Assembly (NCBI GenBank): GCA_965178125.1
Contig: OZ237739.1
Span: 1,116,001 to 1,180,000 of the forward strand
Length of the DNA stretch: 64,000 bases
Reading direction: 5' to 3'
Source: Bilabrum cf. latius
Lineage: Eukaryota
Shown: positions 1 to 63,282 of the stretch, one piece after another
Position numbering within the stretch: position 1 is the stretch's first letter
Layout: every line of letters starts with the position of its first letter
Translations under genes and position numbers: made by a program
The notes under the pieces: generated by a model
What the model saw: only the letters and a program-made list of their open reading frames with translations
What the model was told of the DNA's origin: nothing
Databases searched by the model: none

Positions 1-1
1 C

Positions 2-415
2 GACGAGGACGAGGATGACCCGTTAGAAGGCCTCTCAGGTGCCGAGAGGCGGAAGGCAAGGTAGAAGCTTCGGAAGAGGGCCAGAAAGAAGCAGCGTGGT
101 CGCAGCAAGACCTCTCGTCTCGCTGCCAAGAGGCAGGGCAATATCTGGGATGAAAACAAAGCCAAGCTCAGGCAGGAGAGGCAGCGGAAGGAAGCCGAGA
201 AGAAAGCCAGGGATGAAGCCAAGGCAGCATCCATCGAGAAAGCCAGGGCGAAAATCAAGGCGCAGCGGGATGCAGCGGTGGCAGCAGCTGGTGGGAGCGA
301 GGCCATGGGCCCGTCTTCGACAAAAGCAACTGCTCGGATGGTGGATACGAGCACTGCATTGGCTCGTTTTGCCAAGGAAAAGCAGCCCGTGTACCTTGGT
401 AGGCAAGGGAAATAA
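2..415 (+). CDS. UTP7: 3' end of a probable WDR46/Utp7 (BING4) SSU-processome protein; the 5' part lies outside the window
   Basis: Frame from nt 2 reads DEDEDDPLEGLSGAERRKAR[TAG 62-64]KLRKRARKKQRGRSKTSRLAAKRQGNIWDENKAKLRQERQRKEAEKK...STALARFAKEKQPVYLGRQGK-TAA(413-415). The 'RGRS...D E.. ...ALxRF' tail resembles the WDR46/Utp7 C-terminus as I recall it. Confidence 0.6.
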
Positions 416-475
416 ATAATTACCACGAACTTCTATGTATTTCCACCTGTTCATCCTGTGCACCGCCAGCAAGGA

Positions 476-3400
476 TCACTCGCGACCACCCAACTGCCGC
501 TCTTCGCTAGCATCGTCCTGCGAAGTTGCCTGGCCAGCCACAACTTCATGGCACCGCTGGCAAATCGGTACCAGGGAATCCGCCCCTTCCGCTTGCGCTT
601 GGCTGTCGTCGGACAGGGGCACAACGGTTGGCTCGTACCGCCAGCATCGACCGCATCGGTGACCGTCTGCCGAGGCCAGCTGCACCGATATCTGCACGCT
701 ACCGAGCGCACCCTATCTCTTGGAAACAGTCTTGAATGATGCGTCAAGGTGTAGCTCAGACAAGGGGTCCGCTGTTGCCGGATCCTTTCCGTCGCCCAGC
801 AGCAGCTCCTGCTCATCCACAATTCTCACTGTCAAATCCAGCGGATGGTCCATGCGGCCCCCCAAGGAACCCGGCCCTGCCACAGACGCAGACTCCGCCA
901 TGGTTTGCAATGCACCATCGATCTCAGCCGCATCCCCAACGCAAGCCACCTTCACGCCCGACACCTTGAGTGCATCAGACAGGTCGCATCTCCCTCGAGC
1001 CGAGAAGCTCAAGCTACCACTGGTGGCCCCCTGCTCCTAGCCGGCAAACCACGCCAAATATGCCGCCACCGCCGGCGCATCGGTCCCCGAAACGACAATC
1101 CTGGCATCAACCTCTTCGTCCGAGCCCACAAGACCATCGGTCCTGGCCCTCGCACGGAGGCTGTCCACGAGGCCACGCACAGCTCGTACAGCCTCATGCG
1201 CATCCTCGAGGAGCATGCAGCCGTCATTCGGCACACCTAGGGCAGCCGCAAGGGCTGGCACCTCGTGCGGCATCAGAGCTTCCCACCACCCGGGAAAGTC
1301 TGCGTGCGACCAGGACGAATCCATGCTGCTGATGCCGCTGACAAGAGGATCCGCCAGCAGATCCCTGCCCTTGCCGGTTCCAGTGCCTCCTGCGGCAGCA
1401 TCCACAATCTCGATCGAGTGCTGGAATATATCCTCTGCCGTGTAAGGTGCCACCGGTGCCAGGCTGGTGACCATGCCGCGCAAGCTGGCCCACAGCACGG
1501 CTCGGCAGCTCCGGCTCCTGGGATGCTCGAGCGGATCCGCATACAGACGGTCTTTGCACGCGTCCAGATAGCCAGCAGACATGTCTTGCGCCGCAAACTC
1601 GCCGAGCGCGGTGACGGCTCCCTTTGTCCCCAGGCCACCGTACGCAAGCCTTGCCTGATGCGTCATGCGACGCAGCGATGCAAGAGCCACTCTGTCGAGA
1701 GGGGTGTAGGCGGACAGTCCAGAGGGGCCGCCAGATGCGGGTGCGGGAGGCTGCGTCCAACTAGCGATAGCTGCAGCCTCGAGATCACCAGAAGCATCGT
1801 TTGCTACGCCCAGCTCTGCCGCGGTGCTTCCTTCGAGTGCTCCCAGGATAAACCGAGCGGTATTGCGCAACCTCCTCAGCTGCTCGAACGACTGCGCCAC
1901 GGAATCCTGCGAGATGGCCACGTCCGATTTCCAATCACTGCTAGCCACCCACATGCGCGCCACGTCCACTCCGTACGCTGGCGAGCCTTTGGCGCCGCCC
2001 TGCTTGCTTCCTTTGGGTGCTTTCGCGCCCTGTTGGTTCGTGCTGATACCGGCCTTGGCAAGCTCCGCGGCCCGTTTGGCCTTCTTCTCTGCCTGCAGCT
2101 TGCGCTTCTTCTCGCGCTTGAGCTGGCTCTTGCTCTTTGGCTTGGATGGCTCGGTGCTTTCCTGAGACTTAGCGTCGATCGTGGCTTCCGGCGAAGTCTG
2201 GGGAAGCTCTGGCTCTAAATTCTGGCTCTGAGGTGCAGCTCCAATGGGCGTGTCGCTGCCTTCAATAATCTCGCTAGGCTCGACTCCGTTCCCGAGGCTT
2301 TTGCTCATCTTCCTGCCCTAGCCATCCGTGATGAAGCCATGCGTCACTACCGCACGATAAGGAGCCCGACCCGCGGACAGCACGCTCGTCAGCAAGGAGG
2401 ACTGGAACCAGCCCCGGTGCTGGTCGGAGCCCTCAAGCACAACGTGGCTGGCGGGCGGAGCGCCTTCAAGCCATTCCTTGCCCTGTGCCTCGCCAGTGAA
2501 TGCTATGCCTGATTCGTCCGTGGCACCTTCCGCCATGTCGGCCCGCAGGTTTCCCTTTCCGGCCCATGCCGCTGTCCAGCTCGACCCAGAGTCGAACCAC
2601 ACGTCCAGCGTGTCTGTGCTCTTGGCCCACCACCTGCCCTCTGCGTCCCGCACGCACTCCCGCCCCTCCGTGTCCACGCCCCTCTGCTCCACCCCGAGAT
2701 CGGACACGCGCCATTCCTCGGGTAGCCAGTCTGCTGCGTGCCTTTCGAACCAAACGCCAGTACCATGCTCCTTGACCGCCTCGATCACCCCGGACAGCCA
2801 GCTCTGCCCCATGAACGCCGCGCCGCGACCGCTCTCCAAGTCGCCCTCGTGCGCCTGATCGGTGTGAAAACCTCGGTCCGAGCCTCCCACAGCAGATTCG
2901 GACGCGGGACCACTGGACCGTAGCAGTACCGGGATGGGAACCCCCCACGACCTCTGCCTGCTGATGCACCACCTGGGCCTCGAGCCGACCATCGACTCCA
3001 GGCGGTTGCGAGAAGCAGGGGGTTCCATCTGCACGCTCTGCAAGGCCTTCAGAGAACGTTCCCTGACATCGGAAGGAAGCTCAGCAAACCACTGCGGCGT
3101 GGTCCGGATGATAACGGGCTGCTTGGCTCGCCAGTCGTATGGGTACCTGTGCCTGTGCTCCTCCTCAAGCAACAGGGTCCCTCGTGATACCAAGTCGTCG
3201 ATCACAGCCGCTGTGCCTGCGCTGAAAATCTCCTTGCCAGCGTATTTGGCTCCAGCATCTGCCGTGAAGATGCCCTTGCCATCCACGGGGCAGAGATTGG
3301 TGCGGAGCGGCACAGCCCCCTCACCCTGGTTGAGCTGGCTGATGGCATCGAAGTCCTCTTGGCCGTGTCCTGGAGCCGTGTGCACGATCCCAGTGCCGCT

Positions 3401-4612
3401 ATCAGCCGTGACGTGGTCGCCGGTCACCACCACAGACAGGCGTGGTGCTGCTGCCAGACTAGCGCTGCTGGTGCTGCTGGCAGAATGCCCACCAGCATCT
3501 ACAGTGCCTCGCGTCACACTCGAAGGCACATTATCTCCCAACGGGTGCTCGAACAAAAGGCCTTTCAATCCTTCACCCTTCACCTCCTCAAGCACTCTAA
3601 ACTCTACCGAACTAGCTGCTGCTGGTGCCTCCTCCACGCCTACCGACCGAGCTCGCGCTGCCTCAGCTAGCACCCTACCTAGGTCACCCATCCGCTCTTT
3701 TGCGACCAGCAGGGGTGGGCCCGCACCTCCATCGCCCCCTGTCTGCGGCTAAACGATGCAGTACTCCATCTTCGGCCCCACAGCAAGAGCCACGTTGCCA
3801 GGCAGGGTCCAAGGCGTGGTCGTCCACACGGCCGCAACCAGATCGGGATACGAGGCAGCGAGGGATTGGGCCCGCGCGGAGGCCGGGGCGGATGAAGACC
3901 CAGTCGCGTGGAGCTTGAATCCTACATAAATCGATCTAGAAACGTGGTCGTCGGCGTATTCCAGTTCCGCTTCGGCGAGGGCTGTCTGCGTGGCGGGCGA
4001 CCAGTAGACCGGCTGCTCTCCGCGCTTCAAGCAGCCACTGCGAGCAAGATGGGCAAACATGCGGAGCTGCTCTGCCTCGTACGCTGGATCTAAGGTGCGA
4101 TATGACGCTTGGATTGCATCGGCCCCGGCACAAGCCTCCCAGTCTGCCATGGCGCCCCACCGCACCATGTCCGCCATCTGGGCCTTGATCGCGTCCTTGG
4201 CGCATGCCTCGGCCACATTGCGCACTTCTGCCGGACTCCGTGCACCAGTCAATTGTAATTTCAACGCCTTGAGCTCAATGGGAAGCCCATGGCAATCCCA
4301 ACCTGGGACAAAGACGGCGCGCCTTCCTCGCAGAGTATGAAATCGATTGAATGTGTCTTTTACAACTCTGTTGACGAAGTGACCGAGGTGCAAGTTGCCG
4401 TTTGCGTACGGTGGTCCATCGTGCAGTACAAAATCCGCAGATTTGCCTTTTCGACGCTCCAGCTGCTTTCTGTATGCGTGTGTTGTAATTCGGTCGGTAG
4501 CTACGGGCTCCCTCTCAGCCGCTCTCGACCGCATTGGGAACCTTGGCTTCGGCAGCAGGAGCGACAACTTCGCTGCAGACTTTGAAATCACCCGACTGGT
4601 CGCAGAAGACAT
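476..4612 (-). CDS. IARS2: Isoleucyl-tRNA synthetase, bacterial/organellar (IleRS1) type, probably mitochondrial; intronless, about 1378 aa when TAG is read through
   Basis: Five collinear in-frame ORFs joined by TAG at 3749, 2318, 1037 and 713. Motifs: FVLHDGPPYANGNLHLGH (HIGH), PGWDCHGLPIE, WTTTPWTLPGN, GTGIVHTAPGHG, WCISRQRSWGVPIP, DTLDVWFDSG, EGSDQHRGWFQSSL, HGFITDG[TAG]GRKMSKSLGN and a C-terminal Zn knuckle CGRCWRY...CQRC. Ends in TGA. The start ATG at 4612 is inferred. Confidence 0.95.
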
Positions 4613-4814
4613 ACTAGTGCCTTGTATTAGGTGAAATAATAGAACAGGTGCGATTCCTCTGTAGGTTCCGCTGATGGTCCCGCGTCGATGCGCGGCGCCT
4701 TTGCACATCGGACCTGGGAGGTACCATTGCAGTGAATCAGCACCAAAGTTGACGTGCCGTATGATACGGTGCCACAATACGGTTGCGTCCTCCCTGTGAT
4801 ATATGCCTCGATCA

Positions 4815-4881
4815 ATCCGGAGACGAGACGTGGTACTACACAGGGCTGCGGCAACAGGCATCCGGAGACGAGACGTGGTAC
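4815..4881. repeat. 22-bp perfect direct repeat (ATCCGGAGACGAGACGTGGTAC x2) in a divergent intergenic region
   Basis: Copies at 4815-4836 and 4860-4881, between the IleRS start (-) and the membrane-protein start (+). Confidence 0.85.
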
Positions 4882-5256
4882 ATGGTGCAACCGGAAAGTA
4901 ACTGTGTGTGGATGGGAGGGGTGAGTGGCTGTCGTGTTGCCCCATCGGTCAGCAGCCGTGTGACCTAGGTATCTGGCAATGATCCGGATCCGATCCACAC
5001 GGCAGTGCCGCAGTGCGATGGATTCCCGGAGAGCTCCAACAATGCCCGCCTGACATATTCCAACAGCCCGAGCCTGGATACAAATTGGTTTAATTGCTAG
5101 TTTTGGGTGCCAAACGCCCCAGCTGGGAGCAAAACTGTCCCTGGTGCCCCTCGTCAAGCCAAGCAAGCAAATCAACCGCATTTGCGACCAGTCTTGAGCC
5201 CGCTGTGGGCTTCAAGCTCTCGGCACAACGGCCCCGCTAAGGGAAAGTGCCTATTA

Positions 5257-8200
5257 ATGCGTCACCAAGCATGGCAGATGGGTGTATTAGTGCTCATTCT
5301 TGCATCTCCTCTCGGAAGAGCCGGTGAAATCCTAATGAGTGCGGATCATGAGCAGCGATACGGGCTCCTAGACAGCGGGCTGCTGATCAACGAACGTGCA
5401 TGGCCCATATCGGATAATTTTTCTGAACTTTCGGCGGGTAAAGATGATTTTGTGCACAATGTGGTGGACAGGGCCATAGAGTAGGCAGATCTGGAGCTGG
5501 GCCAAGCCTCCATCACGTTTCGGTAGGGGGATGGACACGGATCTCGTCGAAACGAGTTTTCCGCTGATTCAATAAATGGCAGCATGATTGCAATGCTAGA
5601 ATCTTCTGAAATGGCTCCTGCTCCGATTGTTGGGGCTACGTAGGGTAAGTCACGCCGTGGAAGTTTGGGGAATAGGCTGGTCACCGCTGACGTCGGGCCT
5701 TTGATACGTGTCTGCACCCTACCTGTCTCTTCTGCATCGCAGGTGGTGGTACTGCTGTAGGTATGGTTGGAATCCACCCTATTCTGCGGTCTTTGCTGTC
5801 TGAAGGAGAGAATCTGCAAGCGATGTGGCCTTTCACGGAGGTTTCGGCCAAACTAAACTACAGTGAGAATGGCGGTATAAGGGGACTGACTTGCTGCTGG
5901 TTGCTTTGATTGTTTGCATTGATTGCAGTCTCAGCTGTAGGGATGTTGGCTTGTTCGTGGGCCTCCCGCCTACCTCGCTCTAGCTTTTCCTGTGTTCTCG
6001 TCTGCAGACAGTTCACTGGTTGCGCCGAATTACCTTGCAATTTTGCCTGCTACCTCTATTACACCCCATTTATTTGTAGGTGGCTTTGGTATGCGACGGA
6101 GCCTCACGGCCCAGGACATGAGCCGAAGCAACCCAGGGCTGAACCGGCCGTGCGGACTCGGCAATTCCTAGCCGGCTACGGGCTCCGTGAGCGCTCAGGC
6201 TGGCATGGGCTGGGGCCTGGGATCGGTACTATTCGAGCCAAAGTCTGCAGTGCACGTCAGGCCAGTGCAGTCCGGCATGGACGGCTGGGTGTCACCACTC
6301 GACGACGGGCGGTACAACCCCCAACTTGACGACGCCGAGACGCCCGAGGTGCAGATCGAGATGTGGATGCTTCGGCTCCGCAACTCGCTGGTCTCATCCA
6401 CTCCGTTCAACATGGCCTGCGGATACATGGGCCTCCCGTCTTCTGGGCAGCCCTCGGGCCAGCAGGTCGGGTGGTCCGAGGCCATGCTCACCTTTTTCCT
6501 CCCAAGCTGCATCCGGCAGAACTTCGACCTCAATGTCTCCACTACGTTCCAGCCGATCCCGCACCAGGACGTGACCACCTACGAACAAGCCGAAGTGGCC
6601 AGGCTGCCGCCGCAGCAGCAGCACTACATCAAAACTTCGTGCGAGGTACAGGTGTGCGACTCGTCTCTCTCCGCCCTCAAGTGGCACCACGTTCTCTTCT
6701 GGCAAAACAAGAGAACGACCATGCCGTAGATCCTCCTAGACTCGAATCTGTGAGAACTGAACAAACGCACACAGGCTCATATTCAGTGTGCTTCCCCGTT
6801 CCATGCAGCACATCACGTGCTCACTACAGGCAAGTCAGGGGAAGTCGGGGGTCAACGGCCGCTTGGCAAGCGCAACCACACTGTCCATGTTATTTTGTTC
6901 ATTGTATCTCTTGTTCCGCAGGGGTGCTGGGTGGAACGGCTCCGACTGCATGCATTGCAGGTGCCCGGACTTTCCCTCCTCTGTGCAGCAGGGTCAGTGC
7001 GGGCGATGCACGCACGACACACGCATCAGACCCAACAAGCTGCAGACCCTCAAGCCGGAGAGCGGGCTGGTTTTTGGAGGCACGTTCAACCAAGTCGCCT
7101 TCGGCGCCTTTTAGTTCGTCTCTGTCCTCAAGAAGACTTCCCCCAGGCGGCTCGGCCCCCAGTTCGCCCCTCGTCTCCCTCCCGTCGACCAGGGCCACTG
7201 GGTCATCCGCAACACGAGCCTTGAAGGATACTTTGAGGGCAGAGCCACTGCGTACGCCAGGTGCGACCACCCCGGTCTCGTGGCCGTGGGCACGCCCGGC
7301 GGCCGCACCTGGCTGGGTTCTTGGAGCGGCCCTCCATGGGAGGGAACCCCGGAGCAAGATGCTGACAGGGCGGTCGTGTCAGACATGCGCCGCCGGGCCG
7401 CCACAGCGGGATAGGGCCTGCCCCTCCGGTACCGGTACCTCCCATCCTACCTTGAAGATGCCCGCGGCAAGTTCGACCCGGACCGGTCGGGGCGGCTCGA
7501 CGGCAGCGAGTCCGCCGGCGACCCGAGCAAGCTGGAGGAGGCAAAGCAGACCGGCTTTGCTGCGGGCGACTACGCCGAGACGTATCGCCTGCCATGGGCG
7601 ATTCCTCGCTGCGTTGAGCCCTGGGGCTCCGAGTCGCCCTACCGCGAGATCTTCCACCGCCACGGGGCCTACGCGTGGGACAAGACGCACGAGGAGTAGG
7701 CCGTGGTGACGCTCACGCTGCAGGTGGACCCGGCCCAGTTCCCTCCGGGGAGCCCGCAGGGAGACACGCTCGCCAACAAGCTCAGGGTAGAGCTGGTCGA
7801 CCTGATCGCACAGATCGAGTCCTCACGCATCGCCGTTTTCCTCGAGCGATCCTCGGAGCTGCAGAAGCGAAGCCCTCCGGGGATGCTAGCCATCGTGCAC
7901 ATCTACCCCTCTAATCAGCCGGCCCCGGCCAGCGGCGCTCTGGGTGAGGACGACGACCTGCCGGTGGTGTACGACGATGACGCCGGACGCATCACGGCGG
8001 AAGGTGGCGCCACGGTGCAGAACAGCCCCCGCATCGTAGCCTACCAGATTATCGACCTGTTCGCGTCTCCAAGCGACGCCGTGCTGGCAGACACGCTCGC
8101 TCTCGCGCAACGGTATCCGCAGGACGAGCCCCGGCCCACGCTGGAGCTGCTTCCCCGCTGCAAGGACGGGAGCTTCGCGAGGATCTGCTCCGCGACGTGG

Positions 8201-10285
8201 TTCTTCTCTCGCGGGTTCATCGGGCTCGTGTGCTTCTTCGCTCTGTCCTGGGGCACCGTGTTCCTTGGGAGGTGCTGCATCGATGACAGCGGGATCATCC
8301 CCGAGACGAGTGCCCAGCAAAAGATGCGGCTGGAGTCCCGCGAGACGACTCGAAGCGGCACCAAGTCGGCCCGCGACTCAGAGGCATCGACGGGAGGAGC
8401 GGCCGCGCACGCCGCCAGCAGCTCCAACCGGTCCGAATCGCATGGACCCAAGGTCAACTACGACGACGAGGAGGACGAAGTGACGGGCAGTAGCTGGGGC
8501 TCTGGAGGTCATGACAAGCCCGGCGGCCGGCACGTGCTGGCTGGTTACAGCCTAGATGTGGATGAGGAGGGCGGAGCATCTGGCGGATCCAGCGGTGCGG
8601 GGAAGCGCTCGGAAGGAGGCATCGCGGCGAGCGGCTCCAGAATCTCGACGAGTTCTGCCCGCACAGGGATGCGCCAGGCAGCTGTCAAACCTCCGACCAT
8701 GCCCATGGATCAGGAGATGCCGGGAGACTACCTTGATTCCTCCAGCGGGAACGGGGTGGGCATCACTGGATCCGATTCATTGGGCGGGATCGAGCTCCCT
8801 TCCGCTGACTCGGGCCTGCCCCCGCTCACCGGCAGCTTGAACTCATCCCCCGCGCAGGAGAACGTGCTGCATGGCGGGACGCTCTCGCAGAGCGGTGATC
8901 TCGGCAGCATCAACAGCTCAATGTGGAGGGTGGCCGGCGACAGCGGCAGCACCTCTGGCGGCTCCTCCCAGGACACTGCCAATCGGCTCATTATGCTGAG
9001 GTCGCGCCCACTGACCAGGACATCCAACATCCTGGTCCCAGCCTTTGGCGTGGTGTCAATGGGCTGCGTGTACCTGCAGCTGATCGTTCTCGTGCTGGAG
9101 AAGCAGCACCCCGCCTGGATCACCATCCTCGCTGCCCTGTGCGTGTTTGCGGCCGAGAACATCTGGTATGCCACAGTGCGGCACTACATCCTCGTGGTGG
9201 AAGACACTTCCAAAGACGCCAGGCTTAGCAAGTGGTACGCCGAGTCTATTGCCAACCGCGTCACCTACTGGGTCATCACTGCGCTGTCCATCTTCTTCGG
9301 CCCGACCACCTGCATGCTCCTGCAGTGCTACTGGAGGCGGTGGGAGGTCTTCAGCATGCCGCTGACTATGAGCAGGAACGCCCCCGAGGCGTACCCCGAC
9401 GTGCTGAGGAGGCACTCAAGCATACCTGCCATCACCGTGGTGGGTCCCACGTTCGTGGTGATCACCCTGCGCGTGATCGGCGTGTTCCCGCCTCCCCCAC
9501 CCGGCTGGCCCGCCATGGTCACGCTGGCCGTGCTGTTCCTGTACTTTGTGTTCACCATCGTGAGCGCGTACCTGGCCCGGCTGGACCTCCGTCTGGACGA
9601 GCAGTTCGATGCCGACAGGCGCGAGATGACGCAGGGCTTCGCGAGGTATGTGTCGGAGGACTCCAACATGCGGAGCAGACTCAGCGACGGGACACCGCCA
9701 CAGAGCGGGTCGAGGCAGATGGCTCCCGACCTGGGCCCCACCCTCCCCGCGGCGCAGGAGCGGCCGATGGGCAGCGGCGCGACCCCTCCGGACCCGCTGG
9801 GATACGGGGACTCGGAGGGGCCTCCCGTGTCAGAGAGCGACGGCGCCATTGGAGAGACGGCGGCGGTGGGTGTGCGGCCGGACGACAGCGCCGAGCCAGG
9901 GTATGACGCTCCGAGACCTGGAGGTCGGCGCGCGGAGCATCACGGGCACAACGGGAGGAGCAGCGCGGGCGCGGCGGGGCAGTCGTACAGCACGCCTGGT
10001 CTGAGCTACGCCCCGCAGTCGGACGGCACGTCTGCCTATGACAGGAGCGAGGCGGCGGGGAGGTCCACGTCCGGGGGTGGCGGCGGGAGGCAGGGACAGG
10101 GGCGTGGGCGTGAGCAAGGGCAGGAGCGCGGCAGGGGTCGTGTGGAGGACGATGGCTTCATGGTGCAGCAGGTGTACACGTCTGGGTCGGACGGGCGGCA
10201 GTCTGAAGTCGTGGGCGGGGCAGGGCGGGCGGGCCGTCCTGCTGTACGGGAGGACAGCCGGGACCCCGATGAGCCCGAGATCTGA
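5257..10285 (+). CDS. Large multi-exon membrane protein: signal peptide, Cys-containing ectodomain (LamG/ConA-like 'IEMW...KWHHV' segment), TM helix, low-complexity loop and a C-terminal multi-pass TM region
   Basis: Hydrophobic N-terminus MGVLVLILASPLG. Frame-consistent introns at about 5645-5742, 5863-6079, 6750-6829 and a GC-AG intron at 6866-6921. About 8 in-frame TAGs (e.g. 5482, 5641, 6727, 7112) link the pieces to ORF 7703-10285, which has several hydrophobic helices. Ends in TGA. Confidence 0.7.
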
Positions 10286-10536: not shown

Positions 10537-13500
10537 ATGTAAGGACTATCGATTGGCGGGATGGCAAGATGGGGTTTTACAACGCACACCCTATCAAATA
10601 CAGCTTGAGTTGAACAAGATGTCCTTTTGGACTAAATTTTTGTCTTTTGATTGCTTGTTTTGGTCGCAGGCCCCTGTCCCGTTTGGCGGAGGAGCTGCAT
10701 ACCGCTCTACCCTATGTCGACAAGCTGGCCGAGCTCCTTGCACGTCGGCGAGATGATGTAGTCGCAGTGCTCGAGGAGCAGGACACTACCGATCCCGACG
10801 ATGCGAGTTGAGTTGAAGAGCCGCCTTCGAGTATTCGATGGGCAACACGGCCATGCTGGACGCGCAACTACGAAACATATTTTGTTATTCACTTACTGCA
10901 GCACAATTACACTGCTCTGAGTAAAGCTGCTGCGAACGGATGGAAGCCCTCGTGCGAGTTGCTGCTGTCAAAAGGTGCGCTGATCGAGGCCGAGGACGCC
11001 GTGAGTCGGAATTCGAGCACTACAAAGGTACCTGCCTTTGTCTCTTACGTTACGCATACCATAACTGCCACGCCCATTCAATTAAATAGGCTGTCAGGAG
11101 CGTTCATCGCACTAGCTTGTTGCACGGCTGGTGCGTCCATGCCGATCCAGATATCCTATGGATAAAGTTTTGTGATAGGTGGGCTTCCTACTCGACTTTC
11201 ATCACGCAAGCAACCCACTAACACGGGCACCTTATAGTTGCCATCCGTCCTTGTGCGAGCGGCTGCTGTCGAAAGGGGGCCCAACTGGAGGCAATGAGCA
11301 AGGTCGTTTGAGAACACTGGAATCGAAACCAAATAGGGCCAGTATTAATTCGAGACCGCATACAATTAAGACAACCTTGCTCCTGTTCAGAATACTCCTT
11401 TTCCAGCTTGGACTCACGCCACTTGGACTGGCAGCTGAGAATGGCCATACCGCTGTGTGCGAGCTGCTGCTGTCGAAAGGGGCGCTAACCGAGGTCGAGG
11501 ACCCAGAGGTGAGTTGGGTTCGAGTGCGCGTGTGATTCTCCTGGCGATATACCTACGAAGGATTCGGCATGTTGGTCTTACTGGATGCTAGCTTTGGGTG
11601 CCCATGCTTGTGTAGCCATAGGGTTCGGATGCATCTTGGGATTTGCTTGTAGCAATGTCTGCACCCATGTCCGATGGCATATTCCCAGTGGAATTAAGGA
11701 GACAGAGTCTGATTCGTTGCTAACTTCAAAGGAGATGGTAAGCGTCTGAGCGATCCGGATGCGATGCGAAGAAGGAGATCGCGGCAACACATTGTCCGTA
11801 GGTGGGCCGAGGAATTGTTGCATTTGGCCTAGACTAGGAGAGACATCGTAATCGGATCCGGATTCCGGAATTATGGAAGAGGGCGGGCCACGAAGAGTGG
11901 AGGTAGGCATCTCTCCAGTCTATCGCCTCCATTCGGAGTGAAAGAGCTCAGGACTGACAGATTTATGCAGGCTCGCGCTGTGGCGACCTATTGCTGCTGG
12001 TTGTATATGGTGGGAGGCATTGCACTCAGCTGTGCTCTGTCGCGTGTGTGCATATATGTATGCGCCTCGCAGGAAGGAGACACGCCGCTTGGACTGGCAG
12101 CTGAGAATGGCCATACCGCTGTGTGCGAGCTGCTACTGTCGAAAGGGGCGCTGACCGAAATCAAGGACGCGGTGAGTTGGGTACGGGTGCACGTGTGAAT
12201 CTTGGGGTGATGTGGTTAGCGAGGATCCGGCATGTTGGTCTCACTTAATACTAGTGCGGCGTGTGGTGCTCATGCTTGTGTAGCCATAGGGTTCGGATGC
12301 ATCTTGGGATTTGCCAGTGGCATTGCCTGCACCCGTGTCCGGTGGCATATGTGTCAGAGCTGATGCATGACGCTGGCTCGCGTTGTGGTGGCCTGTTGGT
12401 GCTTGTTGTATATGTTGAGTAGAGTTGCACTCAGCGCTCCGTCGTACGTGTGCATATTTGCATGCGCCTCGCAGACTGGAACTACGCCGCTTGGATGGGC
12501 CGCCTACAATGGCCATACCGCTGTATGCGAGCTGCTGCTGTCGAAAGGGGCGCTGATCGAAGTCAGGGGCTATGTGAGTTTGCGACGAGCATTGCGCCTT
12601 GCGATGATCCGGGGTGGGCGTCGCACTGGACACGAGGTGGGGCGGTCATGCTTGTGTAGCCATTGGCTGGGACGTGTATTTGATTTGCTCGTGGCGTGAC
12701 ATTGCCTGCACCCGTGTTGGATGGCATCTGTGTTTGAGCTGATGCAAGATACAGGTTCGCGCTGTGGGGACTAGGAGTTGATTGGATATGGGTGGCATTG
12801 CACTCAGCTGTGCTCTGTCGCATGTGTGTATCTATTCATGCGCCTCGCAGGATGGACTCACGCCGCTTGGAGTGGCAGCTGAGAATGGCCATACCTCTGT
12901 ATGCGAGCTGCTGCTGTCGAAAGGGGCGCTGGTTTAGGCTGCGAACACTGTGAGTTTGTGACGCGCGTTGAAGAGCTGATTGTATACGGAAGGCATTGCA
13001 CTCAGTTGTGCTCTATCGCATGTGTGCATATATTTATGCACCTCGCAGGATGGAGACACGCCGCTTGGAATGGCAGCTGGGAATGGCCATGCCTCTATAT
13101 GCGAGCTGCTGCTGTCGAAAGGGGCAATTATTTGGCCCAAGTGCAGAGTGAGTTTGTGGTGTTGAGAGCGATCGGCATAGACTGGGTCCCACTGGATATG
13201 CTCGGGATGGTCTGTTGATTTGTACATTGTGCCGATATTTCGCATAGGCTCCTCTTGGATTGCCTGGCAGGAGCAATTAGCTGTTCGTGACGGTAGTGCC
13301 TCATCATCTTGAGTCGAAACCGAGAGCCCGTGTTCACTCCGTTTGCTTTGTTCCAGCTCGGAGATGAGTCACTGGTACCGAATTGGCAGAATGGAAAGAA
13401 TCGCTCGCCATTGACATGAATACCCGACATGCAGCAGCATACTAACTACTAGTTATGATAAAAGTTTCGCTTTCAACCGTAGAATGGCGCACCAGCATAT

Positions 13501-42656: not shown

Positions 42657-42846
42657 GTTGACAGAGAAATCGAGGCCACTCCTGTACTGTTCCAGCCTAA
42701 TTTGGCATTGAAAACAAATCTCGCTAAAGGTTTATACTCCGAATTGATGTTTTGGTGTGACGAGTACGGACCTTCCGCGGATCTAGATGGTGATAAGTCG
42801 TGATTTCACGCTAAAAAATCGGCACTGGATTCCTTGTAGTGCCGCA

Positions 42847-51477: not shown

Positions 51478-53136
51478 ATGTCGAAGTGAGAGTTCATGGA
51501 TACCATGCGAATCAGATGAGAATGCACAGACTTGTTTTCATGATGCATTCTGATGTTGTCGTGAAGTCTTGGACTCTGTTTCTCAGACGTGATGCAGATG
51601 GCCTACACCTTATCGGCTACTCTGCATGTCATCATACTGCTGATGAATTAGCGAGTTTGCTAGCTCAGCCAAAGTTCAGGGCTGTGGTAAACTGGTAGCA
51701 TGTAAACTGGGTAAGGGTTAAGACTCCAAGATGCAACCAAATTCAAGATCGTAGCCTCTTGCTCTCATCCTCGTCGAGATTATGTGCGTCGAATGCAAAG
51801 TTGATGACTGTATTACATTCAATGGTTATTAATCTGTTGCTGCCCCGAGCAAGCATGCATCATTGACATGCTAGGTTGCTGCGTGGAAGACTCGATCCAA
51901 ACCCTCTGATGCGCCGACCCTGCGCAGCATCTCCGGCCACCACTGTACGAGGCAGCTTGGTGGAATGAAGCTGCAAAAGTTCGTCTGCTTTGCTAGGCGG
52001 GAGCGTACCCAGATATACGAGAGTCTTCTGTGAGAACGGAGCGCAACTGCAACTGCAGGACGCGTGCCGCAAGTTGCTGTATCCCACGCAATCCGGCCCA
52101 ACTCATCCAAACGAATACAGGGACTGGAAACACCTCTGTATAGTGCTGCGACGAAGCACAATCTGGAGGCAGTCGAAGCGTGCCTTCAATGTGGTGCGGA
52201 CCCCGATGCACCCAACATAGTGAGACTTCTGGCACGCTGCTGGCACGCTGCAGGCCAGGCCTTTGGGAAATGGAACAAAAGTATTCCTTTCTTGTCCGAT
52301 CTGCGTAGTTTCTTATTTAAAGAGCTGCGTTTTTCGCATCGACTTTCCTTTGCTTGCAGTCAGGCGTCACCCCGCTGGTTCACGCACTGAGCCACAACCA
52401 CCTCCCAACCGCGATGCTCCTAGTAGCGTTCGACGCCGACATTTTCCATCCTGACGTTGGACCGCGCTTGGCCGCTCTCGGGTGCCCATTTCCCCAATTC
52501 CCAACTCCTTCCGCTGGATCCGGTGGCGCCGATGGGGACGAGTATTCGCGTGCCTACCGCCGATGGCTCGCCTCTGACTCGGATGACACGCCCCGGGGGG
52601 GGCCTGCAACCGTGAGACGCGCAAAAGAACCGGATGCAGCCGCCGGTGACGCGGCTGGCGCGGGGCCTCAGTCGTCGGTGATGGCCAAGTGGAGCGCCGT
52701 GGAGCACATCTACTTCCGGTTTGTGGCAGCGGCCGACGATGCGACCATGGAGAGGTGCCGTCGCCTGGGCCTGGAGAAACACCGGCCCCGGGGGATGCAG
52801 CTGCTGCGTTTCAGGAGGGCAGTGGAGGCCAAGAGGGACGCGGGGAGGGTGTTCCGAGCAGCCAGCGAGGGCAGGCCCATGGAGCTGGCCAGGAGGCTGA
52901 GGCTGGGCAAGCTGGCGGGCGGCTTGGCCATCAAGGGTGTCGTGGACGGGGACTTGATGTCACCCCAGAAGGCCGCTCGGCTTGGAGGACACAACGAGTG
53001 CGTGAAACTGCTGAATCAGGCAGCGTTCGGTCTCATGGCCCAGGTCGGCAGGGAATCCTCGGGGGTAGAGGGCAGCGGGATGGCGGGCCAGGTGGATGCT
53101 TTGGTGTTTCCGAAGGGAATGTAGGGCGGAAAATAA
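51478..53136 (+). CDS. Ankyrin-repeat protein (copy 1) with the same C-terminal module as the 10.5-13.8 kb gene
   Basis: Exons 51478-85, 51587-51710, 51928-52029 (PPLYEAAWWNEAAKVRLLC[TAG]AGA), 52121-52219 (TPLYSAATKHNLEAVEACLQCGADPD) and 52360-53136 (GVTPLVHAL...). Ends PKGM[TAG]GGK-TAA. Confidence 0.8.
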
Positions 53137-53516: not shown

Positions 53517-53972
53517 TGGAAGTCGCATTAGCATGGTCACGGGGCTTAGCATGTGGGCGTCATGGGGATACACATCCATGTGGGCTGGTCTATGCCAGCC
53601 TTGGTATCTGTGCAAACCCTGGATCGACTGCAGCAACAGACTGCGTGCTGGCAGCGCGCGGAGCCCACGTTCCATTGCGGAACCTCGAGGCCAGGAAGGG
53701 TTCACTCTTGGCTAGTCATCGTGCCTATCGAATAGTACGAGAAGTGTCATCGTGCAAATTCAATCTGTCTGTTTAGGCTTCTTCGAGTTGCCATCACTGC
53801 GGCTAGTTGGGCTTCCAGACAAGGCCCCGATATCCCTGACCTAGTGCTGGAGCAGACTCGAAGCCGTGGTGTAGCTCGACTAGTGTGAAATTCGTGTTGA
53901 GTCCGATCAACTTGAAGTGGAGACAAGCTTGTAAGACTGTCCAGGCTTTGCTTGCATCTTGGCGTGTTTTCC

Positions 53973-55613
53973 ATGGCAGGTCCGGATGAGGTGATTGACC
54001 TGGTGAGCAGTGATAGTGAAGAAGAGTTTGAGGGAAACCCCGGCGGAAGCATGGTTGTAAGTGGTCGTGCGGAGGCATCACCTGGACTACTAGGTGCCGT
54101 TGTATCACGGAGTGGGCGAGCTGGGCGAGGCAGCATGGCTGTTGGTCCAGAGTTGTAGTCAGCATCAGGTTCAACAGCTGCATTGATGACATTGGCTTCT
54201 GGAGTCTAGTCAACTGAATCAGTGTCATCTAGTGCTACCAGCACAAGGGCCCGTTTGGGGCAGAAGAGAGTCCGTGAAGACTTCGAGGCTGCCGAAGAAG
54301 GTGGCGATGCAGTGGATGAGCACGGTGCAAGCAACAAGAAGAAGAAGAGGAGGAGAGAGGAGCAGAGTCCAGCGGCAGGGGAACTCACCGGCGATAGTGG
54401 CAAGGGATACGATTGCTCAGTGTGCGGCAAGCGCTTTGGACGCCCAGGCCATCTCACGACGCACATGAGGACTGTGCACCTCGGGGAGCGCAATCACGAG
54501 TGCTCTGTGTGCGGCAAGCGCTTTGGGGTGGCAGGCAATCTCACGAAGCACATGAGGACTGTGCACCTTGGGGAGCGCAATCACGAGTGCTCTGTGTGCG
54601 GCAAGCGCTTTGGACGCCCAGGCCATCTCACGACGCACATGAGGACTGTGCACCTCGGGGAGCGCAATCACGAGTGCTCTGTGTGCGGCAAGCGCTTTGG
54701 GGAGGCAGGCAGTCTCTCGACGCACATGAGGACTGTGCACCTCGGGGAGCGCAATCACGAGTGCTCTGTGTGCGGCAAGCGCTTCGGGGAGGCAGGCAGT
54801 CTCTCGACGCACATGAGGACTGTGCACTATGGGGAGCGCAATCACGAGTGCTCTGTGTGCGGCAAGCGCTTTGGGGTGGCAGGCAATCTCACGACGCACA
54901 TGAGGACTGTGCACCTTGGGGAGCGCAATCACGAGTGCTCTGTGTGCGGCAAGCGCTTTGGACGCCCAGGCCATCTCACGACGCACATGAGGACTGTGCA
55001 CCTCGGGGAGCGCAATCACGAGTGCTCTGTGTGCGGCAAGCGCTTTGGGGTGGCAGGCAGTCTCTCGACGCACATGAGGACTGTGCACCTTGGGGAGCGC
55101 AATCACGAGTGCTCTGTGTGCGGCAAGCGCTTTGGGGAGGCAGGCCATCTCACGACGCACATGAGGACTGTGCACCTTGGGGAGCGCAATCACGAGTGCT
55201 CTGTGTGCGGCAAGCGTTTTGGGCTGGCAGACAGTCTCTCGACGCACATGAGGACTGTGCACCTTGGTGAGCGCAATCACGAGTGCTCTGTGTGCGGCAA
55301 GCGCTTCGGGGTGGCTGGCAGTCTAAAGACGCACATGAGGACTGTGCACTATGGGGAGCGCAATCACAAGTGCTCTGTGTGCGGCAAGCGCTTTGGGAAG
55401 GCAGGCCATCTCACGACGCACATGAGGACTGTGCACCTTGGGGAGCGCAATCACGAGTGCTCTGTGTGCGGCAAGCGCTTTGGGGTGGCAGGCAATCTCA
55501 CGACGCACATGAGGACTGTGCACCTTGAGGAGCGCAATCACGAGTGCTCTGTGTGCGGCAAGCGCTTTGGGAAGGCAGGCAATCTCAAGAAGCACATGAA
55601 TGCAATGCACTGA
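53973..55613 (+). CDS. SIM-like motif + NLS + 14-finger C2H2 zinc-finger array protein (ZF-A)
   Basis: ATG 53973 reads MAGPDEVIDLVSSDSEEEFE, then TAGs at 54156 and 54207, KKKKRRR and 14 x 29-aa CSVCGKRFGxxxxLxxHMRTVH repeats (87 bp). Ends in TGA. Confidence 0.93.
54408..55610 (+). repeat. 87-bp coding minisatellite, 14 units
   Basis: Near-identical units CACGAGTGCTCTGTGTGCGGCAAGCGCTTTGG....ACGCACATGAGGACTGTGCACCTTGGGGAGCGCAAT. Confidence 0.97.
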
Positions 55614-57600: not shown

Positions 57601-58065
57601 TTGGAAATCACCTTGGCATGGTCACGGGGCTTAGCCTGTGGGCGTCATGGGGATACACATCCATGTGGGCTGTTCTATGCCAGCCTTGGTATCTGTGCAA
57701 ACCCTGGATCGACTGCAGCAACAGAACAGACTGCGTGCTGGCAGCGCGCGGAGTCCACGTTCATTGCGGAACCTCGAGGCCAGGAAGGCTTCATTCACTC
57801 TTGGCTAGTCATCGTGCGTATCGAATAGTACGAGACGTGTCATCGTGCAAATTCAATCTGTTTGTATCGGCTTCTTCAAGTTGCCATCACTGTGGCGAGT
57901 TGGGCTTCCAGACGAGGCCCCGATATCCCTGACCTAGTACTGGAGCAGACTCGAAGCCGTGGTGTAGCTCGACTAGTGTGAAATTCGTTTTGAGTCCGAT
58001 CGACCTGAAGTGGAGACAAGCTTGTAAGACTGTCCAGGCTTTGTTTGCATCTTGGCTTGTTTTCC

Positions 58066-59793
58066 ATGGCAGGTCCAAATGAGGTGATTGACCTGGTGAG
58101 CAGTGATAGTGAAGAAGAGTTCGAGGAAAACCCCGGCGGAAGCATGGGTGTAAGTGGTCGTGCGGAGGCATCACCTGAACTACTAGGTGCCGTTGTATCA
58201 CGGAGTGGGCGAGCTGGGCGAGGCAGCATGGCTGTTGGTCCAGAGTTGTAGTCAGCATCAGGTTCAACAGCTGCATTGATGACATTGGCTTCTGGAGTCT
58301 AGTCAACTGAATCAGTGTCATCTAGTGCAACCAGCACAAGGGCCCGTTTGGGGCAGAAGAGAGTCCGTGAAGACTTCGAGGCTGCCGAAGAAGGTGGCGA
58401 TGCAGTGGATGAGCACGGTGCAAGCAACAAGAAGAAGAAGAGGAGGAGGAAGGAGCAGAGTCCAGCGGCAGGGGAACTCACCGGCGATAGTGGCAAGGGA
58501 TACGATTGCTCTGTGTGCGGCAAGCGCTTTGGACGCCAAGACACTCTCAAGACGCACATGAGGACTGTGCACCTCGGGGAGCGCAATCACGAGTGCTCTG
58601 TGTGCGGCAAGCGCTTTGGGGTGGCAGGCCATCTCTCGACGCACATGAGGACTGTGCACCTTGGGGAGCGCAATCACGAGTGCTCTGTGTGCGGCAAGCG
58701 CTTTGGGGTGGCAGGCAGTCTAAAGACGCACATGAGGACTGTGCACCTCGGGGAGCGCAATCACGAGTGCTCTGTGTGCGGCAAGCGCTTTGGACGCCCA
58801 GGCCATCTCACGACGCACATGAGGACTGTGCACTATGGGGAGCGCAATCACGAGTGCTCTGTGTGCGGCAAGCGCTTTGGGGTGGCAGGCAGTCTCTCGA
58901 CGCACATGAGGACTGTGCACCTTGGGGAGCGCAATCACGAGTGCTCTGTGTGCGGCAAGCGCTTCGGGGAGGCAGGCAGTCTCTCGACGCACATGAGGAC
59001 TGTGCACTATGGGGAGCGCAATCACGAGTGCTCTGTGTGCGGCAAGCGCTTCGGGGAGGCAGGCAGTCTCTCGACGCACATGAGGACTGTGCACCTTGGG
59101 GAGCGCAATCACGAGTGCTCTGTGTGCGGCAAGCGCTTCGGGGTGGCTGGCAGTCTAAAGACGCACATGAGGACTGTGCACCTTGGGGAGCGCAATCACG
59201 AGTGCTCTGTGTGCGGCAAGCGCTTTGGGAAGGCAGATCATCTCACGACGCACATGAGGACTGTGCACCTTGGGGAGCGCAATCACGAGTGCTCTGTGTG
59301 CGGCAAGCGCTTTGGGAAGGCAGGCAATCTCACGAAGCACATGAGGACTGTGCACCTTGGGGAGCGCAATCACGAGTGCTCTGTGTGCGGCAAGCGCTTT
59401 GGGGAGGCAGGCAGTCTCTCGACGCACATGAGGACTGTGCACCTTGGGGAGCGCAATCACGAGTGCTCTGTGTGCGGCAAGCGCTTCGGGGTGGCAGACA
59501 GTCTCACGACGCACATGAGGACTGTGCACCTTGGGGAGCGCAATCACGAGTGCTCTGTGTGCGGCAAGCGCTTCGGGAAGGCAGATCATCTCACAAAGCA
59601 CATGAGGACTGTGCACCTTGGGGAGCGCAATCACGAGTGCTCTGTGTGCGGCAAGCGCTTTGGGAAGGCAGGCAATCTCACGACGCACATGAGGACTGTG
59701 CACCTTGGGGAGCGCAATCACGAGTGCTCTGTGTGCGGCAAGCGCTTTGGGGTGGCAGGCAATCTCAAGAAGCACATGAATGCAATGCACTGA
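58066..59793 (+). CDS. SIM-like motif + NLS + 15-finger C2H2 zinc-finger array protein (ZF-B)
   Basis: ATG 58066 reads MAGPNEVIDLVSSDSEEEFEE, with TAGs at 58249 and 58300 and 15 x 87-bp fingers. Ends in TGA. Confidence 0.93.
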
Positions 59794-60065: not shown

Positions 60066-61154
60066 AGAATGGAACTGCAACTGCAGGACGCGTGCCGCAA
60101 GTTGCTGTATCCCACGCAATCCGGCCCAACTCATCCAAACGAATACAGGGACTGGAAACACCTCTGTATAGTGCTGCGACGAAGCACAATCTGGAGGCAG
60201 TCGAGGCGTGCCTTCAATGTGGTGCGGACCCCGATGCACCCAACATAGTGAGACTTCTGGCACGCTGCTGGCACGCTGCAGGCCAGGCCTTTGGAGAAAT
60301 GGAACAAAAGTATTCCTATCTTGTCCGAGCTGCTTAGTTTCGCTGCGTTTTTCGCATCGACTTTCCATTGCTTGCAGTCAGGCGTCACCCCGCTGGTTCA
60401 CGCACTGAGCCACAACCACCTCCCAACCGCGATGCTCCTAGTAGCGTTCGACGCCGACATTTTCCATCCTGACGTTGGACCGCGCTTGGCCGCTCTCGGG
60501 TGCCCATTTCCCCAATTCCCAACTCGTTCCGCTGAATCCGCTGGCGCCGATGGGGACGAGTATTCGCGTGCCTACCGCCGATGGCTCGCCTCTGACTCGG
60601 ATGACACGCCCCGGGGGGGGCCTGCAACCGTGAGACGCGCAAAAGAACCGGATGCAGCCGCCGGTGACGCGGCTGGCGCGGGGCCTCAGTCGTCGGTGAT
60701 GGCCAAGTGGAGCGCCGTGGAGCACATCTACTTCCGGTTTGTGGCAGCGGCCGACGATGCGACCATGGAGAGGTGCCGTCGCCTGGGCCTGGAGAAACAC
60801 CGGCCCCGGGGGATGCAGCTGCTGCGTTTCAGGAGGGCAGTGGAGGCCAAGAGGGACGCAGGGAGGGTGTTCCGAGCGGCGAGCGAGGGCAGGCCTCTGG
60901 AGCTGGCCAGGAGGCTGAGGCTGGGCAAACTGGCGGGCGGCTTGGCCATCAAGGGTGTCGTGGACGGGGACTTGATGTCACCCCAGAAGGCCGCTCGGCT
61001 TGGAGGCCACAGCGAGTGCGTGAAGCTGCTGAATCAGGCAGCATTCGGTCTCATGGCCCAGGTCGGCAGGGAATCCTCGGGGGCAGAGGGCAGCGGGATG
61101 GCGGGCCAGGTGGATGCTTTGGTGTTTCCGAAGGGAATGCAGGGCGGAAAATAA
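60066..61154 (+). pseudogene. Ankyrin-repeat gene copy 2, 5'-truncated (only the last two exons remain)
   Basis: Near-identical to about 52032-53136, but homology begins inside the intron, so exons 1-3 and the ATG are missing. Ends PKGM-CAG-GGK-TAA. Confidence 0.7.
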
Positions 61155-61367
61155 CAAATTGTGCGCTGTACATGTGCCTGTGTAGACTAGGACGTCCATC
61201 GTAGAGCGCAACCTAAACGAATATAGCTATGAAATCTGGTAAAGGGGAGCTGCACACAGACAGCCTGACCGCGAGAATGGACTTTCGTCCGTGACCGAAT
61301 ATAGTAGAGCATGCCTTAGTCACTAGTAGTATATCTCCTGCCAGTGCTCCGGGCCTGAGATCCCACT

Positions 61368-61533
61368 AGAGGGGGCCCCCACTTTGGTGGGACTTGCGGG
61401 GCAGCACTGGCAGGCCGCGCTGACTCGGTGGAGGGAGGAGGCGAGGCGGGCTGGGCGCCCGGGGAGTTGAGCCCGGGTCCGGGCTTGGGGGGTGCCGGGT
61501 GGGGGGGGGGGGTATCTGGAGGGGATGGTGTGA
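61368..61533 (+). pseudogene. Second internally deleted Nup107-like remnant
   Basis: Same tripartite deletion product as 53350-53516. Confidence 0.6.
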
Positions 61534-61989
61534 TTGGAAATCACCTTGGCATGGTCAGGGGGCTTAGCTTGTGGGCGCCATGGGGATACGAATCCATGTG
61601 GGCTGGTCTATGTCAGCCTTGGTATCTGTGCAAACCCTGGATCGACTGCAGCAACAGACTGCATGCTGGCAGCGCGCGGAGTCCACGTTCATTGCGGAAC
61701 CTCGAGGCCAGGAAGGGTTCACTCTTGGCTACTCATCGTGCCTATCGAATAGTACGAGAAGCGTCATCGTGCAAATTCAATCTGTCTGTCTAGGCTTCTT
61801 CAAGTTGCCATCACTGTGGCGAGTTGGGCTTCCAGACAAGGCCCCGATATCCCTGACGTAGTACTGGAGCAGACTCGAAGCCGTGGTGCAGCTCGACTAG
61901 TGTGAAATTCGTTTTGAGTCCGATCAACTTGAAGTGAAGACAAGCTTGTAAGACTGTCCAGGCTTTGCTTGCATCTTGGCGTGTTTTCC

Positions 61990-63282
61990 ATGGCAGGTCC
62001 AAATGAGGTGATTGACCTGGTGAGCAGTGATAGTGAAGGAGAATTTGAGGGAAACCCCGGCGGAAGCATGGGTGTAAGTGGTCGTGCAGAGGCATCATCT
62101 GGAGTGCTGGGTGCCGTTGTATCACGGAGTGGGCGAGCTGGGCGAGGCAGCATGGCATTTGGTCCAGAGTTGTCGTCAGCATCAGGTTCAACAGCTGCAT
62201 TGATGCCATTGGCTTCTGGGGTCTAGTCGACTGAAGGGGTGTCATCTAGTGCAACCAGTACAAGTGCCCGCTTGGGGCAGAAGAGAGTCCGTGAAGACTT
62301 CCAGGCTGCTGCAGAAGGTGGCGATGCAGTGGATGAGCACGGTGCAAGCAACAAGAAGAAGAAGAGGAGGAGAAAGGAGCAGAGTACAGCGGCAGGGGAA
62401 CTCACCGGCGATAGTAGCAAAGAATACGACTGCTCTGTGTGCGGCAAGCGCTTTGGGGAGGCAGACAATCTCACGACGCACATGAGGACTGTGCACCTTG
62501 GGGAGCGCAATCACGAGTGCTCTGTGTGCAGCAAGCGCTTTGGGCAGGCAAGCAATCTCACGAAGCACATGAGGACTGTGCACTATGGGGAGCGCAATCA
62601 CGAGTGCTCTGTGTGCGGCAAGCGCTTTGGATTGGCAAGCAATCTCACGAAGCACATGAGGACTGTGCACCTTGGGGAGCGCAATCACGAGTGCTCTGTG
62701 TGCGGCAAGCGCTTTGGATTGGCAAGCAGTCTCACGACGCACATGAGGACTGTGCACCTTGGGGAGCGCAATCACGAGTGCTCTGTGTGCGGCAAGCGCT
62801 TTGGGGAGGCAGGCCATCTCACGAAGCACATGAGGACTGTGCACCTTGGGGAGCGCAATCACGAGTGCTCTGTGTGCGGCAAGCGCTTTGGGCAGGCAAG
62901 CCATCTCTCGACGCACATGAGGAGTGTGCACCTTGGGGAGCGCAATCACGAGTGCTCTGTGTGCGGCAAGCGCTTTGGGGAGGCAGGCCATCTCACGACG
63001 CACATGAGGACTGTGCACCTTGGGGAGCGCAATCACGAGTGCTCTGTGTGCGGCAAGCGCTTTGGGGAGGCAGGCCATCTCACGACGCACATGAGGACTG
63101 TGCACCTTGGGGAGCGCAATCACGAGTGCTCTGTGTGCGGCAAGCGCTTTGGATTGGCAAGCAGTCTCTCGACGCACATGAGGACTGTGCACCTCGGGGA
63201 GCGCAATCACGAGTGCTCTGTGTGTGGGAAGCGCTTTGGGGTGGCAGGCAATCTTAAGAAGCACATGAATGCGATGCACTGA
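61990..63282 (+). CDS. SIM-like motif + NLS + 10-finger C2H2 zinc-finger array protein (ZF-C)
   Basis: ATG 61990 reads MAGPNEVIDLVSSDSEGEFE, with one TAG at 62224 (the other site is TCG at 62173) and 10 x 87-bp fingers. Ends in TGA. Confidence 0.93.

Follow-up and report, generated by a model that had tools for sequence, protein, structure and literature searches.

A nuclear DNA window in which UAG is probably a glutamine codon and UAA and UGA remain stops

Introduction

Changes to the nuclear genetic code are rare, and changes that affect UAG without UAA are rarer still. We describe here a 64-kb stretch of DNA (contig OZ237739.1, positions 1,116,001 to 1,180,000; "the window" throughout) in which UAG is in frame, transcribed and conserved and in which UAA and UGA are the only codons found at gene ends. 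Our preferred reading, to which we give a probability of roughly 0.8, is a code with UAG for glutamine (Gln) and with UAA and UGA as stops (NCBI translation table 15). The organism is a further case of UAG-only reassignment, probably in a lineage with no known case, and the change is apparently common to a small clade.

Among the closest described codes is that of Iotanema spirale (Fornicata), which by the account in PMC5304391 reads UAG as Gln and keeps UAA and UGA as stops, with UAA as the primary one. The same account predicts a tRNA-Gln(CUA) and an eRF1 change, T32G, in the GTS motif (PMC5304391). The window resembles that code in that UAG alone would have moved to Gln while UAA was kept, and the tRNA and eRF1 mechanism predicted there is the one that we would infer here. 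As that account presents it, Iotanema differs in being an unrelated anaerobic metamonad represented by a transcriptome only, with UAA as its primary stop, whereas TGA is the most frequent gene end in the window.

Among the ciliates covered in PMC11687900, UAG alone encodes Gln in Hartmannula sinica and Trochilia petrani, which represent two phyllopharyngean lineages, and in Protocruzia tuzeti; the matching NCBI table 15 is the misnamed 'Blepharisma' code. By that account, UAG occurs in frame at Gln-conserved positions of the ciliate genes and is no stop (PMC11687900), which is the point of likeness to the window. Theirs are macronuclear genomes, in contrast to the 58-66% G+C, long genes, GT..AG introns of 87-448 nt and stramenopile-grouping isoleucyl-tRNA synthetase (IleRS) described below.

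The reassignment of both UAA and UAG (UAR) to Gln is listed for many ciliates, hexamitin diplomonads, oxymonads, ulvophycean green algae and Amoeboaphelidium (PMC11687900, PMC5304391). These codes share with the window a change from stop to Gln, presumably by suppressor tRNA-Gln derived from normal Gln tRNAs. They differ in that UAA was reassigned along with UAG, whereas here five genes end in TAA and none of the 14,212 sense codons is TAA. UAG-only changes to other residues are given for the rhizarian exLh (Leu) and for Scotinosphaera (Ser) (PMC5304391, PMC11687900), and the ciliate PL0344 is described as reading UAG as Glu and UAA as Lys (PMC10553269). As these sources describe them, UAG is likewise decoupled from UAA in all three. 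The residue differs; Leu, Ser and Glu each score far below Gln in the window.

Results and Discussion

In-frame UAG codons and gene ends

The window comes from the nucleus of a eukaryote, a GC-rich, intron-bearing protist, and about 19 protein-coding genes are spread over its two strands. With the standard code, no stop-to-stop frame is longer than 1,239 codons. When TAG is read through and only TAA and TGA stop a frame, frames of 3181, 2372, 1635, 1490, 1367, 1181 and 1174 codons open. Reading through TAA changes none of the longest frames, and reading through TGA merely produces many frames of about 1,000 codons, as expected for GC-rich DNA.

We tallied codons in 12 genes trimmed to their confident coding parts. 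These segments (14,212 sense codons) contain 74 in-frame TAGs and not a single TAA or TGA, while the two off-frames of the same segments carry TAG at 0.67%, TAA at 0.18% and TGA at 1.73%. TAG is therefore about as frequent in frame as off frame, and TAA and TGA are the codons that are missing. The absence of internal TAA and TGA follows in part from the definition of an open frame; frame length is the independent test. If TAG is Gln, it makes up about 11% of the Gln family (74 TAG, 488 CAG, 115 CAA). TGA ends 14 of the 19 genes and TAA the other five (Table 1), and none of the 19 requires TAG as its stop. This supports UAA and UGA as the codons that still terminate translation. The first-pass annotation of the window had described many in-frame TAGs in nearly every gene on both strands, no internal TAA or TGA, and genes ending in TGA or at five named TAA sites, and the counts bear out each of these claims. 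The GC3-minus-GC2 periodicity around TAGs and true stops did not discriminate between them (means of 0.11 upstream and 0.14 downstream of TAGs).

Ambiguous codes, in which one codon is both sense and stop, operate in Condylostoma, karyorelict ciliates and Blastocrithidia (UAA). A code of this kind, with UAG translated inside genes yet ending some of them according to its position in the mRNA, is distinctly unlikely for the window. The room for it lies in five genes (both coiled-coil genes, the unknown 1,635-codon gene, the Mps1 gene and copy 1 of the ankyrin-like gene), where the last TAG precedes the TGA or TAA by 4-141 codons. One count of five genes, with IleRS set aside, gives this distance as 31-141 codons. 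Frame length alone permits that TAG as the true stop. On the other side, not one of the 19 genes needs a TAG stop, and conserved domains continue beyond the last TAG in the IleRS and DUF1499 genes. The ankyrin-like copy that carries CAG in place of TAG has the same four codons next and the same TAA. Furthermore, the window has dedicated TAA and TGA stops, unlike codes that lack any dedicated stop. No codon is both translated and a regular terminator, as TAA or TGA stands at 19 of 19 ends and neither occurs in frame. UAG may retain a minor terminator role in a few genes, which nothing in the window requires.

Conservation and transcription across UAG codons

Homology extends in the same frame across the TAGs. 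For example, the IleRS TAGs at residues 400 and 877 are flanked on either side by sequence that aligns to PDB structures of the enzyme. The latter TAG (first base 2320) is the codon directly ahead of the Gly-Arg that precedes the KMSKS loop, in the motif HGFITDG[TAG]GRKMSKSLGN, which was present as the first-pass annotation had reported it. A Cys-rich C-terminal motif lies downstream of the fourth and last TAG of the gene. Human arylsulfatase A (ARSA) aligns across two TAGs, and other TAGs sit inside the DUF1499 and vWA Pfam matches.

Transcription was assessed in the stretch 33901-53900 with contigs of four runs from four studies: X1, a DNA run of even coverage, and X5, X7 and X8. Eight introns are removed in X5 and X7 contigs, none of the eight joints occurs in X1, and the depth of X5 differs from gene to gene. 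The introns seen in contigs are of the GT..AG type and span 87-448 nt. This splicing indicates that X5 and X7 are RNA-derived, although no listed run is on record as RNA. Of 26 in-frame TAGs in the stretch, 15 lie under the listed X5 pieces, with 0 differing letters, and no run has a variant row at any of the 26. In the coiled-coil gene at 31969-41514, X5 contigs at 34431-35859, 36815-38443 and 40515-41323 include 10 of these TAGs with 0 differing letters. At the vWA gene, a spliced contig of X5 (4,126 nt) spans 43431-47027, and at the Mps1 gene an X5 contig spans 48303-51420, again with 0 differing letters.

These data bear on the possibility that the TAGs are not translated at all and arise instead from base-calling or assembly errors, C-to-T hypermutation of pseudogenes, editing to CAG or removal by splicing. 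A handful of sites fit such an explanation: TAG 43349 is intronic, and towards the 5' end of long frames a few more may be non-coding. The first-pass annotation had named the vWA gene among those with in-frame TAGs; of the two TAGs in its open frame, the one at 44810 is exonic and the one at 43349 is not. Elsewhere, contigs of all four runs match the window at the TAGs with 0 differing letters, and the spliced ones keep 15 of 15, which speaks against editing, loss by splicing and errors in base calling. C-to-T hypermutation would also have acted on CAA (115) and CGA (158), with about 17 TAA and 24 TGA expected; neither codon occurs, and hypermutation is thereby excluded. A relative at about 91% protein identity shares TAG positions, and untranslated TAGs would make housekeeping genes such as those for IleRS and Mps1 all dead. 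We therefore find an origin of the TAGs in error, mutation, editing or splicing scarcely credible.

Interrupted orthologues in relatives

Part of the unknown 1,635-codon gene (26873-31780) served as the query against 1.84 billion representative proteins. A close relative was recovered as at least seven open reading frames (ORFs) at 86-97% identity, each placed on a contig of 8,282 nt, and a second relative at 54-58% identity as two ORFs listed on contigs of equal lengths (3.2-3.7 kb). The presence of several ORFs per orthologue indicates that the relatives' genes are also cut by stops. Searches with the coiled-coil genes gave only four and one matches, with low-complexity words filling the candidate list. 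For the gene at 14038-21156, they identified fragments of a relative at 86-98% identity that end at the window TAGs q594 and q2271 or at the CAG q384, and that have Q at the TAG q2089.

Of 15 ORF ends of the relatives that could be placed, five fall exactly on a window TAG (p ~1e-8), and 4 of the 10 non-shared ends fall on a window CAG (p ~2.5e-4). Two of the CAG events are robust, since all five members of one cluster and all three of another end at the same residue; the contigs behind these clusters differ in length, from 700 to 10,315 nt. The count leaves out P0131, in which the last 4 residues are unaligned, as well as P0125 and P0135, whose ends lie past the query piece. From these positions we infer that the relatives' stops are TAG. 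Relatives at 54-71% identity are present in JGI, ENA and Logan assemblies, and the trait appears common to the window organism, its ~91%-identity relative and these more distant ones. Frame lengths, homology across TAGs, spliced contigs and the interrupted orthologues together support the translation of UAG as a sense codon.

Identity of the UAG residue

Gln is the best reading of the residue, which we hold with modest confidence given the few sites on which it can be judged. The likelihood comparison, the ORF ends on CAG and a pair of paralogues all favor it, as the first-pass annotation had proposed, within a small and mixed sample. In a crude likelihood comparison of 22 TAG-versus-relative pairs, with substitution counts taken from the same alignments, Gln ranks first over all pairs, ahead of Lys by 8.8, His by 11.4 and Glu by 24.9 ln units; Leu and Ser are also far below. 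In the control, Q is retained at 48 of 53 CAG columns and at 13 of 15 CAA columns. The TAG at 53122 in one of the twin ankyrin-like genes does correspond to CAG in the other, as had been noted in the first pass. A close relative has Q at two of the four window TAGs that it spans. A neighbour-residue classifier also placed Gln first; its calibration almost never recovered the true residue, and we give it no weight.

We consider it unlikely that UAG is a sense codon for another residue (Lys, Glu, His, Leu or Ser), although several observations point that way. Lys equals or beats Gln in two of five likelihood subsets. Two of the four TAGs in IleRS are alignable, both in variable polar columns: among 120 homologues, the column ahead of KMSKS holds K45, Q37, N16, R13, H4, E3, D1 and A1, and the other column holds E46, R25, K14 and Q14. 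The KMSKS motif had been offered as evidence for Gln; the column does allow Gln, yet with Q37 versus K45 it is weak evidence when taken alone. E and L stand at the remaining two of the four TAGs spanned by the close relative, and the third zinc-finger paralogue has TCG where the other two have TAG. Close-relative and paralogue comparisons combined give Q or CAG in 5 of 12 cases, with three of Ser type, two L, one E and one K, and at window TAG columns the residues of distant relatives are H, R, E, T, M and K. The ARSA alignment places the upstream-exon TAG (PSS[TAG]NGLP) opposite Arg. The remaining ORF ends of the relatives fall on TCA (2), TCG, TTG, CCG and AAG, and the TCA at one of these ends differs by a single step from TAA and TGA but by two from TAG. 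Furthermore, both the Gln call and the stop usage were judged on one 64-kb window of a single genome. Together with the five late TAGs described above, these points weigh against UAG as Gln with UAA and UGA as the only stops.

The mixture of residues is what fast-evolving proteins would give at sites chosen for having changed. Against a residue other than Gln stand the summed likelihoods over all pairs and the codons at which relatives' ORFs stop, which are CAG four times, AAG once and GAG never, in coding segments with 813 GAG, 426 AAG and 488 CAG. Hydrophobic or aromatic residues are also unfit for the polar IleRS columns.

Proposed mechanism and significance

With UAG as Gln, the decoder would be a tRNA-Gln(CUA), one mutation away from tRNA-Gln(CUG), which would pair with UAG and not with UAA, as inferred for Iotanema (PMC5304391). 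No tRNA genes and no Rfam RNAs, rRNA included, were found within the 64-kb window, and eRF1 is not among its genes. An altered N-domain of eRF1 would have lost or weakened the recognition of a G at the third position, leaving no competition at UAG. TAG would then serve as a third Gln codon, supplied mainly by silent CAG-to-TAG transitions.

An IleRS tree places the query in a clade with Cafeteria and metagenome proteins (SH-aLRT 99%, one gene). Platysulcus is the sister of this clade and oomycetes adjoin, and the join of the query with Cafeteria is flagged as long branches meeting. This one tree, with its long-branch caveat, suggests a stramenopile host (Bigyra-like). It agrees with the stramenopile or bicosoecid-like affinity guessed in the first pass, subject to the same caveat on the Cafeteria join. 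A database search with the HAD exon yielded no taxonomic information. The nearest full-length IleRS homologues (P0001, P0002 and P0004, in JGI and Logan records) have 1,271-1,450 residues at 43-46% identity and are uninterrupted under the standard code. Thus, the nearest lineages sampled for IleRS show no in-frame stops in that gene.

The balance tips slightly towards an independent, clade-wide reassignment of UAG alone to Gln in a free-living, GC-rich stramenopile lineage, which would be the first non-standard nuclear code among stramenopiles. Our literature search found no nuclear UAG reassignment in a stramenopile; most subscription journals lay outside it and the runs date from 2025, so that a report may exist or be on its way. 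Its sole labyrinthulid match concerned mitochondria. If clade-wide, the trait would have sufficient age for studies of the decoupling of UAG from UAA, of the origin of tRNA-Gln(CUA), of the changes in eRF1 and of the reason why the main stop is UGA and not UAA. As an additional case from another supergroup, it would offer an independent replicate for two questions: how eRF1 can cease to recognize UAG alone, and by what route a CUA anticodon arises in a Gln tRNA. This case combines high G+C with ordinary introns and very long genes, and it comes with DNA and RNA data in several public runs and with relatives in metagenomes. Gene callers that apply the standard code will break up almost all long genes in the organism and in its relatives, and the fragmentary proteins in databases show that such miscalling has already happened.

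The sequence of 33901-53900 is identical (0 differing letters) in X1, X5, X7 and X8, which carry four organism labels from four studies, and small shares of it are found in runs labelled 'protist metagenome' and 'algae metagenome'. Several names may be in use for the organism, or it may accompany other cultures.

Gene content of the window

The gene set includes an organellar-type IleRS, arylsulfatase A-like, DUF1499, HAD/phosphoserine-phosphatase-like and vWA proteins, an Mps1/TTK kinase, two giant coiled-coil proteins, ankyrin-repeat genes and three tandemly duplicated C2H2 zinc-finger genes (Table 1).

Table 1. Coding features of the window, with database matches, in-frame TAGs (first bases unless a range is given) and gene ends.
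Feature	Span	Strand	Match	In-frame TAGs	End	Remarks
Lys/Arg-rich gene, last exon	2..415	+	no Pfam family	62-64	TAA 413-415	
IleRS, bacterial-type (organellar)	476..4948	-	Pfam tRNA-synt_1 4.7e-86; PDB IleRS 6e-137	four: 3751, 2320, 1039, 715	TGA 476-478	
Membrane-protein-like gene	6761..10285	+	no Pfam family	7112, 7412, 7697, in upstream frame part, possibly exonic	TGA	main exon 7700-10285, TAG-free
Ankyrin-repeat gene exons	10812..13815	+	Pfam Ank 5e-06 for 11176-11532		TGA	repeat TPLG.AAENGHTAVCELLLSKGA; 198-nt tandem unit at 12775-13158; last exon 13462-13815
Giant coiled-coil protein	14038..21156	-		23	TGA	2,341 codons from first ATG
Arylsulfatase A-like gene	21437..23534	+	PDB ARSA 2.6e-42 and 9.5e-16; Pfam Sulfatase, Sulfatase_C	22911 in main exon, in a loop between conserved blocks; one in upstream exon	TAA 23532-23534	
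DUF1499-domain protein	23721..25244	-	Pfam DUF1499 7.7e-11, residues 401-489	four: 25115, 24779, 23993, 23819; last two within DUF1499 match	TAA 23721-23723	
Unknown protein	26873..31780	-		14 in frame, 9 in confident part	TGA	1,500-1,600 codons
Giant coiled-coil/low-complexity protein	31969..41514	+		20 listed; 19 given with protein from ATG 32038	TGA	3,158 codons from ATG 32038
HAD-family, phosphoserine-phosphatase-like gene	41715..42689	-	Pfam HAD 2e-12	none in examined exon	TGA 41715-41717	intron 42250-42369; joint 42249>42370 (CT..AC) in spliced X5 and X7 contigs
vWA-domain protein	42804..46723	+	Pfam VWA_3 5.7e-12	44810, exonic, within VWA_3 match	TGA	intron 42983-43430
Mps1/TTK-type kinase	47250..51353	+	Pfam Pkinase 9.3e-44; PDB TTK 1.3e-56	eight: 47739, 47796, 48084, 48189, 48582, 50973, 51072, 51156; all outside kinase domain	TGA	
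Ankyrin-like gene, copy 1	51485..53136	+	weak Pfam Ank 0.0023, below curated cut-off	53122, 4 codons ahead of TAA	TAA 53134-53136	four GT..AG introns: 51486-51586, 51710-51926, 52030-52120, 52220-52359 (joints in X5, X7)
C2H2 zinc-finger gene 1	53916..55613	+	Pfam zf-C2H2 3.7e-84	54156, 54207, upstream of finger array	TGA	14 fingers, 87-nt period
C2H2 zinc-finger gene 2	58009..59793	+		58249, 58300	TGA	
Ankyrin-like gene, copy 2	60252..61154	+			TAA 61152-61154	CAG at copy 1's TAG codon
C2H2 zinc-finger gene 3	61933..63282	+		62224, common to all three copies, silent differences alongside	TGA	TCG at one TAG codon of genes 1 and 2

IleRS is 1.4-1.5 times as long as bacterial IleRS and carries several insertions, among them a Lys-rich one of about 90 residues straight after KMSKS, as well as a long N-terminal extension that is perhaps a targeting peptide. 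A further TAG in the arylsulfatase frame at 21437-21973 is surrounded by sequence with no aligned ARSA residues and probably lies in an intron. Within the coiled-coil gene at 31969-41514, a (GGTGCT) x14 array at 32689-32772 encodes a Gly-Ala run. The tail of the vWA protein (45600-46720) consists of about 350 residues of Gly/Cys-rich low complexity with GGC.G.C motifs and matches no family. A spliced X5 contig at 46723-47337 runs from the vWA gene past its TGA, through introns 47028-47114 and 47227-47314, and into the start of the Mps1 frame; this contig reflects either overlapping UTRs or neighbouring transcripts joined by the assembler.

The region 51400-63300 contains a segmental duplication: the pair of an ankyrin-like gene and a C2H2 gene after it is present at 52321-55613 and again at 60252-63282, and the remaining C2H2 gene is at 58009-59793. 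The finger arrays are built of 87-nt tandem units in 9.7-14.7 copies at 91-93% match. Depth in the DNA run rises to ~420 at 52577-53243 (with a peak near 52850-52930 and many loose ends), against ~14 elsewhere, which makes this stretch of the ankyrin-like genes a member of a family of some 30 genome copies. The high-depth stretch also occurs at 13560-13700 and 60870-60950 and encodes RAVEAKRDAGRVFRAASEGRP.EL..RLRLGKLAGG. Two microsatellites are also present, (GGCAGG) x13 at 56351-56429 and (GTGCAT) x8.5 at 57010-57060.

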